From Candidatus Shapirobacteria bacterium (GTDB lineage: Bacteria > Patescibacteriota > Microgenomatia > UBA12405): 64,000 bases of DNA. The position numbers and the translations under genes were made by a program. Under the pieces are notes generated by a model. That model searched no databases. It saw nothing but the letters and a program-made list of their open reading frames with translations, and was not told where the DNA came from. Where the stretch lies: assembly GCA_041659325.1 (NCBI GenBank), contig JBAZYN010000001.1:3098-67097 (forward strand), in the 5' to 3' direction. Shown in pieces: positions 29,751 to 34,733 of the stretch (position 1 is its first letter; each line of letters begins with the position of its first letter).

Positions 29751-29904
29751 TGTCGACAACAACTTCGGGTTCAAAAGAATCAAAATCCCAAATATTAAAG
29801 ACATTATCGGGCTTAAATTTTTTAGTATCATAAAAAATAATATCACTTCCTTGACATTTTTGTCCAATATTTATATCCTTTCAATACCCAAACAAAACCC
29901 AAAT

Positions 29905-31092
29905 ATGACTCTTTCCCAACCACTGGCTTCAATTCTTCGACCCAAAAATCTCGCCGAATTTATTGGTCAGTCACACCTTGTCGGTCCCGGCAAGCCGCTT
30001 CGTTTAGCCATAGAAACTCGTCAGCTTTTTTCTATGATTTTTTGGGGGCCGCCGGGGGTGGGAAAAACTACCTTAGCCCGGATTATTGCCAAAGAATGCG
30101 GGGTTGAAATATACGATCTTTCCGCCGTATCAGCCGGTAAAGACGACATCAAAAAAATCATCGGTTCTTCGGCTCCGGACCTTTATCAAAAAGTATTGTT
30201 TCTTGATGAAATTCATCGTTTCAACAAAGCTCAACAGGATTTCCTTCTGCCCTACGTCGAAAGTGGCAAGTTAACCCTGATCGGCGCCACCACCGAAAAT
30301 CCCAGTTTTGAAATTATTTCTCCTCTCCTTTCTCGTTGTCGTGTTTTTGTTTTAAAGGAACTTTCTGCCGATGAAATGAATCAAATAATTGAACGGGCCC
30401 TGCCCGTCATTGCGAGGAGCTCCGCAACGAAGCAATCTATAAAAATTAACCCTCCCACTCGTGAATGGCTGATCAACATGGCCAATGGTGATGCCCGTCA
30501 ATGCCTAACCATGATTGATAATGCCTTCACCCTTTATGGCAAATTAACCATCGATACCCTAAAATCTACTCTGCAAAATTCTTATCTCCGTTTCGACAAA
30601 AAAGGCGAGGAGCACTACAACACCATTTCCGCCTTTATAAAATCTATGCGGGCCTCAAACGTTGATGCCGCGGTTTATTATTTAGCCCGGATGATTGAAG
30701 CCGGTGAAGACCCAAAATTTATTGCCCGCCGCATGGTTATCTTTGCCTCCGAAGATATTGGTATTACCAACTCCTCGGCTCTAATGTTGGCCAATCAGGT
30801 CTTTCAATCAGTTACCTTAATTGGCTACCCAGAATGCGCTATTAATTTAGTCCATGGTGTAGTTTATTTGGCCAAATCCGCCAAAAATAGATCAGCCTAC
30901 GATGCCCTCCGCTCCGCCCAAACAGACGTCAGACAGTTGGGTAATCTGCCGATTCCCCTCGAACTCCGCAATGCCGAAACCAAGTTAATGGAAGATTTAG
31001 GTTATGGCAAAGGCTACGAAAAATATTCTCAAAAAGATCTGCTTCCTGATAAACTAAAAGGTAAAAAATATTTTAAAGATTTAAAAAAATAA
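29905..31092 (+). CDS. rarA: Replication-associated recombination protein A (RarA/MgsA AAA+ ATPase)
   Basis: Walker [10 protein letters not shown], Walker [12 protein letters not shown], sensor [10 protein letters not shown]; the track ORF starts at a TTG at 29851, and ATG 29905 is taken as the start. Confidence 0.88.
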
Positions 31093-31488: not shown

Positions 31489-31966
31489 GCGAAAATTTTT
31501 AGTAAAACAATTACCCGATTTATCCAGTATTCAGGTCGTAAATTATGAACGATATTATCTATTTGTTGGCAATGGTATTGAACTTAGAATACAGAGAAAG
31601 AATCATAAATATGAATTAGAGCGTAAAGTCACTACTGGTGATTTGACTCGCACTGGTAATTCTTGTCCATTGTCTCCTGAAGAGTTTAATTTGCTAAAAC
31701 AATTATCAAGTAAATCAATTATTCGAGATGCTTATCGACTAAGTGAGTCTCCTAATGTATCAATAAAGATTTATCATGGAGATTGTGAGGGTCTAGTTCG
31801 GGCTGAATTTGAATTTGAGTCAGAGATCGAGGCAAAATCATTTATCCCACCTGAATGGTGTGGTGACGAAGTAACAAACACGGCTTTGGGTCGTGACTCT
31901 CGACTCTTGGCATTATCTAGGCAAGATTTATTAAAAGAACTAAAAGTAGTTGAGTCGAAGGTATGA
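31475..31966 (+). CDS. CYTH-domain protein (triphosphate tunnel metalloenzyme / class IV adenylyl cyclase-like)
   Basis: N-terminal EIERKFLV signature; acidic patches EFEFESE. Confidence 0.7.
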   Translation: MEEIERKFLVKQLPDLSSIQVVNYERYYLFVGNGIELRIQRKNHKYELERKVTTGDLTRTGNSCPLSPEEFNLLKQLSSKSIIRDAYRLSESPNVSIKIYHGDCEGLVRAEFEFESEIEAKSFIPPEWCGDEVTNTALGRDSRLLALSRQDLLKELKVVESKV

Positions 31967-32616
31967 AACTACTCTTAACTTCTGCCGGATTATCAAATCT
32001 CTCAATAGTCAAAGCCATTGAAAGGTTGTTGGGGAAATCTGCCAAAGGGGTTAAGCTGGCCTTTATCCCCACTGCGGCCAACGTTGAGCCTGGTGATAAA
32101 AGCTGGATGATTGAAGATTTGAACAATTTCCAAAAAACTGGTTTTGAGGTAGATATTGTTGATATTTCAGCTCTACCGAAAGAGATATGGTTGCCAAGAA
32201 TTGAGAAAGTCGATGTATTGGTCTTTAGCGGTGGCAATACTTTTCACCTGATGTACTGGCTAAGAAAATCTGGCTTAAACCAACTGCTCCCAGAACTACT
32301 TAAAAGTAAAGTTTATGTAGGGATTAGTGCAGGCAGTATGGTTGTTTCAAAAAGTATTTTTCTAACCTCTGACAAACCAATTTTTGGTGAAGACAGATTG
32401 GGTGTGGCTGATGACAGAGGTCTGGGTCTTGTCAATTTTTACGTTCGCCCTCATTATAATTCCCCACTTTTTCCAAAGGCAAAAGAAAATGTGATTGCAA
32501 AGTCGGCCAAAACAGTCACCGAGCCAGTTTATGCTCTGGATGATAACGGTGCCATTGAGGTTGCGGACGATAAAATCGAAGTCGTTTCAGAAGGGGAATA
32601 TAAGATATTTAATTAA
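31963..32616 (+). CDS. Peptidase S51 (dipeptidase E / cyanophycinase-like), copy 1
   Basis: FSGGNTF, GISAGS (Ser nucleophile), RPHY (His). Confidence 0.7.
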   Translation: MKLLLTSAGLSNLSIVKAIERLLGKSAKGVKLAFIPTAANVEPGDKSWMIEDLNNFQKTGFEVDIVDISALPKEIWLPRIEKVDVLVFSGGNTFHLMYWLRKSGLNQLLPELLKSKVYVGISAGSMVVSKSIFLTSDKPIFGEDRLGVADDRGLGLVNFYVRPHYNSPLFPKAKENVIAKSAKTVTEPVYALDDNGAIEVADDKIEVVSEGEYKIFN

Positions 32617-33419
32617 TTTTTACTTCTTCTCTCAATCTCTTTGTTCGCCATTTCAATTCTCACATGATACGGTGTACTTCGATATAAAACTGGCCAAAGC
32701 GGGCTGTAATCATCTAGAGGTGGAAAGTGAGCATTTCTGAACTTTTCAGTCACCGTAATCATCCCTTTGGGGTCGGTTATATGACTTACTGCAAATCTGT
32801 CAGCCTCGTACTCACTTCGCATTGCATACTGAATATTAAAAAGTCCCAAAGCAATCCCAATTATAGGAATAATATACAAAGGTAGCTTGCGAACAATAAA
32901 ACAAGAAATTATAAAAAAGGTTATAAAAAATATCAGTTCTTTAATAGTATGGTGTAATTGATAGTGGCCAGTTTCATGAAGAACTACATACTCCTTTTCA
33001 CTGTCGGTAAAATCTTGATTAAGTTGGCTTGATAGCATCATGAATGGTTTATTGGGAATTCCAATCATTACAGCATAAGGTCGAGGGGAGGCAATAATTC
33101 TAAAAGAACTTAGCAATAATCCAGTCTTCGATTGGATTAGGGTGATAAGAGGCGACTCCTTGATTTCTGTCAGTAACTTTTGTTTTTGTCCAATGCCCGT
33201 CAAATATAGGTTTATACCCATCCACTGAGTTACATATCCCATGACCAAAAATAAAAGAAGATAGCGCACCAATGGCTTAAAGCGAGTAAGCATATCAAAA
33301 TTATATCCCCATCCGTCAGTTTGAGGTAGAATACCCCTGAACCTTCGATACCACGAAGTAAAAAATATTTTAAAGAAGTGAAAAAATAATGGATAGATTT
33401 GCGGAGAAGTATTCGACAA
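32613..33419 (-). CDS. Membrane Zn-metallopeptidase, HExxH type (M48/M56-like)
   Basis: HETGHY plus downstream EYEAD third ligand; several TM helices. Confidence 0.5.
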   Translation of the reverse strand: MSNTSPQIYPLFFHFFKIFFTSWYRRFRGILPQTDGWGYNFDMLTRFKPLVRYLLLFLVMGYVTQWMGINLYLTGIGQKQKLLTEIKESPLITLIQSKTGLLLSSFRIIASPRPYAVMIGIPNKPFMMLSSQLNQDFTDSEKEYVVLHETGHYQLHHTIKELIFFITFFIISCFIVRKLPLYIIPIIGIALGLFNIQYAMRSEYEADRFAVSHITDPKGMITVTEKFRNAHFPPLDDYSPLWPVLYRSTPYHVRIEMANKEIERRSKN

Positions 33420-33988
33420 AATCGTCCCGCCTTTTTAATTACAATTATTCATCTCCGGGAATTTATTTCATCACCATTTGTACTCTACGCCATAACAATT
33501 TTTTTGGAAAAATTATTGACAATAAAATCAAATTTACCAAAATGGGAATAATTGCCAAAGATGAATTGCTAAAAACAATTATAATTCGTGATAATTTAAC
33601 AATTAACCCGTGGGTGATAATGCCCAACCATATTCATTTACTAATCACACTTCCGAACACCCATGTAGAGACGCCCCGCGGGGCGTCTCTACATAAAAAT
33701 CAAATATTTCCGCCAATTATCCCATCGCATAAAAACCACCCGGAATATTTTTCCAGACTAAATGTCAAGTCAAACCAGGAAATCCCAAAATTAATCAATC
33801 AATTTAAATCAAGAGTTACTATAATCTGTAGAGAAAACAAGTTATTTTTTGCCTGGCAACCACGGTATTACGATGAAATTGTGAAAGATCAGGGAAGATT
33901 CAAAAAAATTAAAACTTATATAATTAATAACCCCTTAAATTGGCAAAAAGATAAATATTATTTTAATAATTTAAAAAATAATCTATGA
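33389..33988 (+). mobile_element. IS200/IS605-family Y1 transposase-like (RAYT-like) gene carrying an in-frame palindromic insert
   Basis: GIYFITICT, HUH motif IMPNHIHLLI, catalytic Tyr region FAWQPRYYD, NPLNW; about 200 aa, RAYT-sized. Confidence 0.65.
33663..33694. repeat. Perfect 32-bp GC-rich palindrome ATGTAGAGACGCCCCG|CGGGGCGTCTCTACAT inside the transposase ORF
   Basis: Left half is the exact reverse complement of the right half; encodes HVETPRGASLH in frame. Confidence 0.95.
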
Positions 33989-34127
33989 AAGAAAGAATAA
34001 TATTTCAAAATTCCCGCTTTAAAATATCATTTGCTTGGTATGATCTTTGGATCGGGCTATTTGTCGATACAAATAAAAAACGGATTTATTTTTGTCCAAT
34101 TCCGACGTTATTATTTACAATTAATTT

Positions 34128-34733
34128 GTGAAGCTCTTTTTAACTTCTACCGGTCTCTCCCCTCAAGTTGCTCCATTCTTTCTAAAGTTAATCTCAAAAC
34201 CACCAAAACAATTCAAAGTTGCTTTTATTCCAACCGCTGCCGATCCTTACGATGATAAATGGTTTATGGAAAAAGATATCCAAACCCTTTCTGATTTTGG
34301 TTTTCCGGTTAACATTGTTGACCTTAAGGCTGATATCACTTTTATCCGCTCTCAGCTTGAAAAAAGTCAAATTATTTTTGTTGGTGGGGGAAATACTTTT
34401 TATTTACTTCACTGGATTCGTCAATCAGGAGTCGATAAATATCTTTCTCAACTTCTGGAAGACCGTTACTATATCGGTGCCAGTGCCGGTAGTGTTTTAG
34501 CCGGTCCCGATATTGCCATATCCGGCTGGGATCCCTCTTGGGATACCAACGACGTTAAGTTGCAAGACACTACCGGTCTCAATCTTGTCCCCTTCGCTGT
34601 TTCTCCCCACTATACCGAAAAACATAAAGAGATCTTAGCTATCAAAAGTCGGGAAGTTAATTACAAAGTTATTCCGATTACTGATACTCAAGCTGTTTAT
34701 TTTAACAATGACAAATACATAATTATTAATTAA
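34128..34733 (+). CDS. Peptidase S51 (dipeptidase E-like), copy 2, diverged paralogue
   Basis: FVGGGNTF, GASAGS, SPHY; same domain order as the gene at 31963. Confidence 0.7.
   Translation: MKLFLTSTGLSPQVAPFFLKLISKPPKQFKVAFIPTAADPYDDKWFMEKDIQTLSDFGFPVNIVDLKADITFIRSQLEKSQIIFVGGGNTFYLLHWIRQSGVDKYLSQLLEDRYYIGASAGSVLAGPDIAISGWDPSWDTNDVKLQDTTGLNLVPFAVSPHYTEKHKEILAIKSREVNYKVIPITDTQAVYFNNDKYIIIN

Follow-up and report, generated by a model that had tools for sequence, protein, structure and literature searches.

A subclass 2.4-type RAYT gene of a Candidatus Shapirobacteria bacterium probably carries an in-frame copy of its own double-foot REP

We analysed a 64,000-nt stretch of DNA from Candidatus Shapirobacteria bacterium (GCA_041659325.1, contig JBAZYN010000001.1, positions 3,098-67,097, forward strand), called the window hereafter, and found in it a gene for a transposase associated with repetitive extragenic palindromic (REP) elements, a RAYT or TnpA_REP gene, at 33389-33988. 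It is likely that this gene is an intact RAYT of subclass 2.4 with one in-frame copy of the 28-nt double-foot REP of its own subclass in the loop between the HuH strand and helix alphaC. Judged from sequence comparison, the conserved object is the DNA hairpin, not the peptide that it encodes. In-gene REPs in subclass 2.4 were already published in 2018 (PMC6006769), and the member from the candidate phyla radiation (CPR) is new. The present analysis adds the conservation at the nucleotide level, the reading of the element in two frames, a series from REP dimer to monomer, and the frequent lack of a nearby extragenic copy.

The perfect 32-nt palindrome named in the original prediction was recovered (Table 1), and its in-frame translation was as claimed, H92-V-E-T-P-R-G-A-S-L-H102 of the intact open reading frame (ORF). 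Only 2.1e-5 perfect palindromes of this length are expected by chance in a 64-kb window of the same composition. Within it lies a 28-nt element with the layout GTAG-AGACGCCC-CGCG-GGGCGTCT-CTAC, whose 4-nt centre CGCG is self-complementary, and which shows both the GT[AG]G foot on a GC-rich stem and the C[TC]AC 3' end by which double-foot REPs of the GTAG type are recognised. It starts 10 residues past H83, and in frame 0 it covers the codons of V93-L101 and one base, the first, of H102. Relatives do not conserve the outer A-T and T-A pairs by which the palindrome reaches 32 nt, and it is the 28-nt GTAG...CTAC element (33665-33692), not the full 32-mer, that forms the biological unit. The core is indeed much richer in GC than its surroundings, with a GC fraction of 0.71 for the 28-nt core, 0.62 for the 32-mer and 0.30 for the remaining gene. 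The probability of the hairpin's codon set under the codon usage of the window is about 1e-7. The RNA folding that the original prediction had proposed as a check gave -27 kcal/mol for the palindrome region (z = -6.3), and none of 200 shuffles was as stable.

We compared the DNA of 160 homologous loci (161 with the window; 26-42 % identical; individual loci are given as L with a number), taken from among the matches listed from a profile scan of genome contigs. A footed hairpin was present within the family open frame at 90 of the 161 listed loci, the window counted. Among the 108 in-gene hairpins, 89 were exactly 28 nt long and 92 lay between HuH and WQ; 89 were read in frame 0 and 19 in frame 1. 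At the protein level, 113 of 120 homologues carried VET...AS or RD...VST. The forms VET-xxx-ASL and (C/R)RD-xxxx-VST turned out to be one DNA, GTAGAGACG...CGTCTCTAC, read in two frames, the third frame containing TAG, and this two-frame reading was seen directly in the DNA of L289. The second-frame form (C/R)RD...VST occurred in 24 of the 120 homologues and 19 of the 108 in-gene hairpins. The stems varied by lineage (GTAGAGACG, GTAGGGGCG, GTAGGGACA, GTAGAGAAA, GTAGATTCG and others), and the opposite arm was always changed to match. In the covariation count, 138 cells were altered on both sides of a pair versus 33 +/- 4.5 in shuffles, and pairing fell to 32-52 % when the partner was slid by 1-3 columns.

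The closest relatives gave the same picture at finer scale. Six Shapirobacteria-type genes hold the hairpin in the same alignment columns, and four of them, those of the window, L281, L285 and L287, have one and the same 28-mer at a protein identity of only 60-67 %. Across the six, every codon pair encoding the same amino acid within the hairpin used the same codon (116/116), versus 64 % in the rest of the gene, and nucleotide identity was 0.92 in the hairpin versus 0.67 in the remaining gene. L288 has a different upper stem, in which every change is compensated, and the extragenic copy 231 bp downstream has this stem too. The 4-nt centre was self-complementary in 48 of 57 unique in-gene 28-mers (CATG, TGCA, CGCG, GGCC, AATT and others), where chance gives 1 in 16, which suggests either that one arm is copied from the other during making or repair, or that the elements function as symmetric sites in duplex or cruciform form. 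A restriction-site explanation, raised by the CCGCGG at the centre of the window element, was rejected because the centre varies freely among relatives.

The evidence supports the assignment of the 33389-33988 product as a RAYT-like enzyme and not an IS200-like one. In the profile comparison that had been proposed as a check, the RAYT model NF047646 (REP_Tyr_transpos, NCBIfam) was the best-scoring by far with 54.4 bits, and transpos_IS200 (NCBIfam) reached only 13.4 bits (cutoff 55); the RAYT score itself was below its cutoff of 80. Pfam Y1_Tnp matched with 32.5 bits (cutoff 23) in two stretches split by the linker. A database search returned 2079 homologues of the 199-aa protein, and an identical protein is recorded in a Candidatus Shapirobacteria metagenome-assembled genome on a 573,898-bp contig, with the JGI name 'REP element-mobilizing transposase'. 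The claimed HUH motif is present as H81-I82-H83. The RYYD named in the original prediction is not the catalytic tyrosine motif but belongs to WQPRYYD, which aligns in phmmer with WQPRFWEH, the GTAG-guide-binding segment of E. coli TnpA_REP (4ER8), and the catalytic tyrosine is Y177 in YIINNP. The guide-binding role of W94/Q95/R104 is described in PMC6006769. H81 and Y177 are 96 aa apart, and 17 aa remain after YIINNP (P182 to L199). Since P79, H81, H83, W156, Q157, Y177 and N181 are invariant across an alignment of 84 homologues, the enzyme looks intact.

The AlphaFold model of the protein (pLDDT 82.5, the predicted local confidence) has a confident core, and residues 91-130 form a low-confidence coil between strand 81-88 and helices 120-149. 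The top PDB match in Foldseek was 4ER8_A, E. coli TnpA_REP bound to REP (E = 8.9e-7, root-mean-square deviation (rmsd) 3.1 A, TM score 0.62 normalised to the target), and most of the IS200, IS608 and ISDra2 transposases aligned to the model at about 7-9 A rmsd. Both the Pfam and the 4ER8 alignments split at the 91-130 linker. The original prediction had placed the palindrome in a loop after HxH, and this region proved to be a variable insertion region that minimal homologues lack or have in far shorter form, their HuH and WQ being 36-56 aa apart. The median HuH-to-WQ spacing was 69 aa without a hairpin (minimum 36), 73.5 with one and 102 with two, compared with 76 in the window. No linker hairpin was found in 69 of 156 scored homologues, which keep all catalytic motifs. 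The encoded residues are not a shared feature of these hairpin-less proteins, a loose remnant of the motif being present in only 17 of the 69. These results show that the hairpin is an insertion within an insertion-prone surface loop after HuH.

Copies outside the gene were found in related genomes, and the refutation that the original prediction had set for itself fails on this count as it does on that of shared residues. The 160 listed loci contained 100 extragenic copies, most of them no more than 300 bp from the gene, and hairpin density was 0.90 per kb inside ORFs, 0.45 within 300 bp and 0.005 beyond 1 kb. Within one locus the flanking copies matched the in-gene copy exactly, as was often the case, or almost exactly, and between loci the copies differed. 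REPs outside the gene were present in the relatives L283, L288, L289, L202, L204 and L205, with, among the CPR relatives, one copy each just downstream in L283 and L288, and four further copies near the gene in L289, three of them of the family of the in-gene copy. The exact 28-mer of the window is intergenic in L286, a related Shapirobacteria contig, 7.2 kb from the gene, which bears out the claim of a REP-type hairpin inside its own transposase gene. As to whether the REP is repeated or dispersed, there is one copy in the 64-kb window; L286 holds this 28-mer outside the gene, and L289 has several copies of sister REPs. Of the 35 loci of at least 15 kb with an in-gene hairpin, 21 likewise had no copy outside.

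Some loci showed more complex arrangements. In the two-copy genes of L283 and L216, copy 1 reads GTAG...CTAA and copy 2, 120-123 nt on, AAAG...CTAC, that is, two single-foot REPs with their feet facing outward. This layout fits the origin proposed for the double-foot REP in PMC6006769, by deletion inside a REP dimer. A homologue read in frame 1 (L289:10314-10420) has a full REP followed by two more copies or part-copies of the 3' arm (CTACGTCTCTAC and a degenerate ACGTTTCTAC), yielding the peptide ...CRDVARYVST-YSN-YVST-INDN-VST.... It looks like a repeated partial duplication at the 3' end of the REP, and perhaps corresponds to the 'short repeats' of Figure S6 in PMC6006769. A Candidatus Cloacimonadales chromosome (OY762463.1; L150:8078-10751) carries an array resembling a bacterial interspersed mosaic element (BIME), with about 20 alternating single-foot REPs of the units GTAGAGACACAA...TCTCTGA and TTTGAGCCACAAG...GGCTCTAC, immediately upstream and a short way downstream of a RAYT homologue without an in-gene hairpin.

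In the explanation that we prefer, the REP within the gene would act as DNA. When the region is single-stranded it would fold into a 12-bp hairpin with GTAG at the 5' foot, and as the palindrome is complete and footed at both ends, the two strands would form the same hairpin. By analogy with the TnpA_REP enzymes studied in vitro, the enzyme would bind the folded hairpin together with GTAG, then cut single-stranded DNA at a CT or CA close by, with formation of a Tyr-5'-phosphate link, and could rejoin strands. The ten residues encoded by the REP (VETPRGASL and part of H102) would be a tolerated passenger in a disordered loop, and since the hairpin sequence is kept rather than the peptide, the gene would always travel with at least one cognate site. 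On this basis we infer that the Shapirobacteria enzyme may bind and cleave its own 28-mer, and that the in-gene copy may be kept through selection for the enzyme-site interaction rather than through repeated conversion.

Several observations weigh against this explanation. The NCBIfam RAYT equivalog score of the product is under its cutoff (54 vs 80), a shortfall that is consistent with a divergent subclass and the linker insertion. The in-gene REP is the sole copy within 64 kb: no half-site was found elsewhere in the window with up to 3 mismatches allowed, a hairpin scan of the window found no second GT[AG]G-footed hairpin, and flanking REPs are absent for 33 kb upstream and 30 kb downstream of the gene, so that a published hallmark, canonical REPs within +/-1000 nt of the gene (PMC6006769), is not seen here. 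The in vitro work covers TnpA_REP groups 2 and 3 only and none of subclass 2.4/group 4 (PMC8266576). The figure of 96 % paired is partly circular, as the hairpins used for covariation had been selected for pairing, and the informative part is therefore the diversity of compensated stems. A self-complementary centre is not required by a simple hairpin-binding model, and the identity of the 28-mer across species could come from conversion or re-insertion rather than from selection on the in-gene copy.

The hairpin might instead be a neutral passenger, a selfish REP that landed in a permissive loop and is tolerated, as Rickettsia palindromic elements are within coding genes, with no role for the enzyme or the cell. 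This agrees with the view of Quentin et al., who regard in-gene REPs as insertions that probably affect the protein little (PMC6006769), with the in-frame REPs of the same family outside the domain cores of unrelated phage portal, capsid and tape-measure genes, and with the modelled disorder of the loop and the 69 scored homologues that lack the hairpin there. Yet a GC-rich palindrome within a gene of 30 % GC should decay if neutral, whereas six genes hold it in the same columns with full codon identity. Moreover, the upper-stem change in L288 is fully compensated and matched in the neighbouring extragenic copy, and hairpins are twice as dense within ORFs as in the neighbouring 300 bp and about 180 times as dense as beyond 1 kb. 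We consequently judge neutrality improbable. Hairpins are known to restrain the expression of IS200 tnpA, and an mRNA hairpin could by analogy pause ribosomes, block 3'-5' exonucleases or give an RNase site, thereby limiting the transposase, which corresponds to the regulatory alternative of the original prediction. The predicted RNA hairpin is very stable, REPs are known to influence how stable an mRNA is, and REP hairpins near RAYT genes have been proposed to down-regulate them (PMC3733652). However, the sense-strand stem mismatches show no G:U excess (4 G:T, 8 A:C, 4 other), a self-complementary centre is needless for an RNA loop, the same element is found both intergenically and, in either orientation, inside genes, the hairpin has no T-tract on its 3' side, the terminator scan does not call it, and no Rfam family scored above noise. 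In the Rfam scan of 33000-34400 (E <= 10) only sub-threshold miRNA and sRNA models appeared, with 15-24 bits against cutoffs of 48-230, and the terminator and promoter scan gave one terminator-like site, at 33758-33738 on the minus strand, within chance expectation. These features are evidence for a constraint that would act on DNA rather than on mRNA, and the RNA-level reading, for which we found no support, is very improbable as the main explanation, although an RNA role and a DNA role of the hairpin are not exclusive of each other.

It could also be argued that VETPRGASLH is a functional protein motif and the palindrome its by-product, as V93 and T95 are nearly invariant among close homologues. 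The same DNA is read in two frames, which excludes this reading; the codons are identical wherever the amino acids are; and the segment is a low-confidence coil without which homologues retain their catalytic motifs. A function at the peptide level is effectively refuted and has a negligible chance of being correct. The same is true of a chance palindrome or assembly artefact. Fold-back chimeras can create palindromes, and this general possibility is all that speaks for an artefact, but the identical element is found at the same position in independent JGI, ENA and NCBI assemblies, and chance predicts only about 2e-5 such palindromes. This reading is already refuted.

A bolder reading holds that the in-gene REP is no tolerated passenger but an essential cis partner, and that a RAYT with a single internal REP is a self-contained two-part unit in the streamlined CPR genomes, the REP serving as a master or seed copy or as an auto-addressing site on its own gene. 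We regard this as possible but rather unlikely. If it were true, activity of the enzyme on its own gene could yield dimers, extra half-sites and N/Q-rich linker expansions, and selection would keep the hairpin nucleotides even without an extragenic REP population. Here a lineage of tiny genomes keeps an intact RAYT whose only nearby REP is inside the gene. The REP is identical at every synonymous site though the species differ at 33-40 % of protein residues, which makes a clean natural test case and suggests that selection acts on the enzyme-site pair itself and not on a large REP population. The pair in the window is also a minimal substrate and enzyme for a first biochemistry of subclass 2.4. 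For annotation, VET...ASL(Q/H) and (C/R)RD...VST in thousands of database proteins are a translated DNA repeat, not protein motifs.

Table 1. Positions of the RAYT gene, its motifs and palindrome in the window, and of phage genes with the REP in other loci
Feature	Position	Strand	Details
RAYT/TnpA_REP gene, subclass 2.4 type	33389..33988	+	199 aa, intact ORF
HuH motif N80-H81-I82-H83	33626..33637	+	read from sequence; fits NH[IFV]H of subclass 2.4
Variable low-confidence linker, aa 91-130, from HuH strand (beta3) to helix alphaC; holds the REP	33659..33778	+	pLDDT 55-71, coil
Perfect 32-nt palindrome (REP and two extra pairs)	33663..33694	.	arms 33663-33678 / 33679-33694, 100 % complementary, no spacer
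28-nt double-foot REP GTAGAGACGCCCCGCGGGGCGTCTCTAC	33665..33692	.	GTAG foot 5', CTAC foot 3', 12-bp stem including feet
W156-Q157-P-R-Y-Y segment	33854..33871 (WQ = 33854-33859)	+	phmmer alignment to 4ER8
Catalytic tyrosine motif Y177-I-I-N-N-P	33917..33934	+	read from sequence; fits YIxNNP of subclass 2.4
Phage structural genes with in-frame REP	L034:8467-10596, L068:2558-4336, L093:3116-4822, L106:3668-5356, L115:6207-7715	-	
Phage structural genes with in-frame REP	L060:11754-13847, L111:911-2326, L120:2139-3425	+	

The 28-nt REP in the form GTAGAGACG-N10-CGTCTCTAC was also observed in IMG/VR viral contigs, at no fewer than 120 loci. The phage genes bearing it encode Mu-like and lambda-family portal, tape measure, capsid and Mu F-like proteins, and the REP was always outside the Pfam domain core. 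No RAYT-like ORF was found in the 120 viral-contig loci with the family hidden Markov model, for which the positive control gave 297 bits, and the viral copies are therefore not linked to a nearby RAYT gene.

The neighbours of the RAYT gene are ordinary, encoding MgsA, two S51 peptidases, an M48 peptidase, a PNPOx protein and an MFS protein. The gene is the only ORF of its family in the 64-kb window, and annotation of the neighbouring genes showed no TnpB near it, in line with the solitary, RAYT-like gene of the original prediction. The mgsA/rarA-type AAA+ ATPase gene lies at 29851-31092, about 2.3 kb upstream, and genes of this type are also found upstream, one gene away from the RAYT gene, in L287 (2586-3827) and L288 (2914-4083); this partial synteny suggests that the RAYT gene was inherited vertically in the lineage. 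The M48 peptidase gene (32613-33419, minus strand) and the RAYT gene lie between the two Peptidase_S51 paralogues (31963-32616 and 34128-34733, both on the plus strand; E = 1.5e-35 and 1.2e-33). The M48 and RAYT pair could have been inserted into a tandem S51 duplication, or the duplication could be tied to RAYT activity. A 48-aa ORF at 33985-34131 (plus strand) starts at the RAYT stop with an ATGA overlap and ends at the start of the downstream S51 gene; it has no Pfam match and may not be a gene.

Relatives of RAYTs that are flanked by terminal inverted repeats (TIRs), the TIRYTs, exist in the literature. Around the RAYT gene of the window only AT-rich imperfect repeats were found when insertion sequence (IS) ends or TIRs were sought. 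The best of them, a 40-nt AT-rich imperfect inverted repeat (33336-33375 / 34017-34056, 70 % complementary), brackets the gene almost exactly, and as a candidate for IS ends or TIRs it was judged a chance occurrence in AT-rich DNA. Apart from the REP, the gene has 30 % GC versus 41.6 % in the window, within a mild GC minimum (0.26-0.35 at 33350-34250), and the contigs of relatives have 31-37 % GC. The low GC could reflect the N/K/I-rich amino-acid composition or acquisition from a relative of lower GC. A compositional island as a sign of recent transfer was rejected, the GC dip being only mild and not sharply bounded.

Among known systems, the closest is RAYT subclass 2.4 of Quentin et al. 2018 (PMC6006769, BMC Genomics 19:475), where it is given as group 4 of the earlier numbering; its motifs are NH[IFV]H, WQ and YIxNNP, and its proteins are 194 aa long in the median. 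It is further described there with a variable insertion between beta3 and alphaC, a median HuH-to-Y distance of 88 aa, an 8-aa insertion at the end of alphaB and no C-terminal extension domain. Its REPs are of 'long' and 'double foot' types, a Table S1 example, GTAGAGACGCACGGCCGTGCGTCTCTAC, having 28 nt, a 12-bp stem, a 4-nt loop and a double foot, and a 'unique feature' ascribed to the subclass is that REPs stand in frame inside the genes, mostly between HuH and Y. The window gene shares NHIH, WQ and YIINNP, a length of 199 aa close to that median, the beta3-alphaC insertion with 96 aa between H81 and Y177, and the lack of a C-terminal extension domain. It also shares the REP design (28 nt, GTAG...CTAC, 12-bp stem, 4-nt centre), in frame between HuH and Y. 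It differs in its CPR host, where the paper names Cyanobacteria, Bacteroidetes and 'various phyla', and in having no flanking REP, where the paper reports REPs within +/-1 kb for the large majority. The window gene agrees with subclass 2.4 in every sequence feature compared, except for the flanking REPs. The accessible portion of the paper mentions neither the reading in two frames nor the conservation at synonymous sites nor the series from dimer to double foot, and our search found no later literature on in-gene REPs or on RAYTs in CPR. Bertels et al. 2017 describe RAYT Group 4 as common in Cyanobacteria, Chlorobia and Caldilineae, with flanking 16-mers of low abundance, about 14 per replicon, and a low REP copy number is common to that group and the 64-kb window.

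The E. coli TnpA_REP/REP-BIME system (PDB 4ER8; Messing et al. 2012; Ton-Hoang et al. 2012; Corneloup et al. 2021, PMC8266576) shares with the window gene the HUH/Y1 fold, the WQPR(F/Y) guide-reading segment and a non-IS-like gene, in the window a single copy, and a GTAG-footed hairpin is the presumed substrate in both. TnpA_REP enzymes of groups 2 and 3 in vitro bind folded single-stranded REP with GTAG, cleave at CT or CA through a Tyr-5'P link and perform strand transfer (PMC8266576). Unlike the window REP, the E. coli REPs have one foot only and form an imperfect palindrome whose bulge is essential; they are extragenic and present in hundreds of copies. The E. coli enzyme likewise differs from the window protein, with DHLH, YIHYNP, a C-terminal tail and no beta3-alphaC insertion, and sequence similarity between the two is marginal (E = 0.0015). 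The IS200/IS605 TnpA proteins (IS608, ISDra2, IS200) have the HUH/Y1 fold in common with the window protein, and their logic of a subterminal single-stranded DNA hairpin with a 5' tetranucleotide guide is found likewise in TnpA_REP. The window protein lacks their motifs DH[VI]H, W[TS] and Y[IV]ENQ, and the window gene has neither left-end and right-end hairpins nor TnpB and occurs once in the window.

Rickettsia palindromic elements (RPEs) are about 100-150 bp long. They were reportedly found by Ogata et al. in 2000 to be inserted in frame into protein-coding genes. In RPEs and in-gene REPs (PMC3733652, Di Nocera et al. 2013), as in the window gene, a short palindrome keeps the frame and gives a tolerated peptide, often in a loop. 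Unlike RPEs, whose sequence is unrelated, the window REP resides in the gene for its own presumed mobilising enzyme, and its insertion is family-wide and biased in position, not sporadic.

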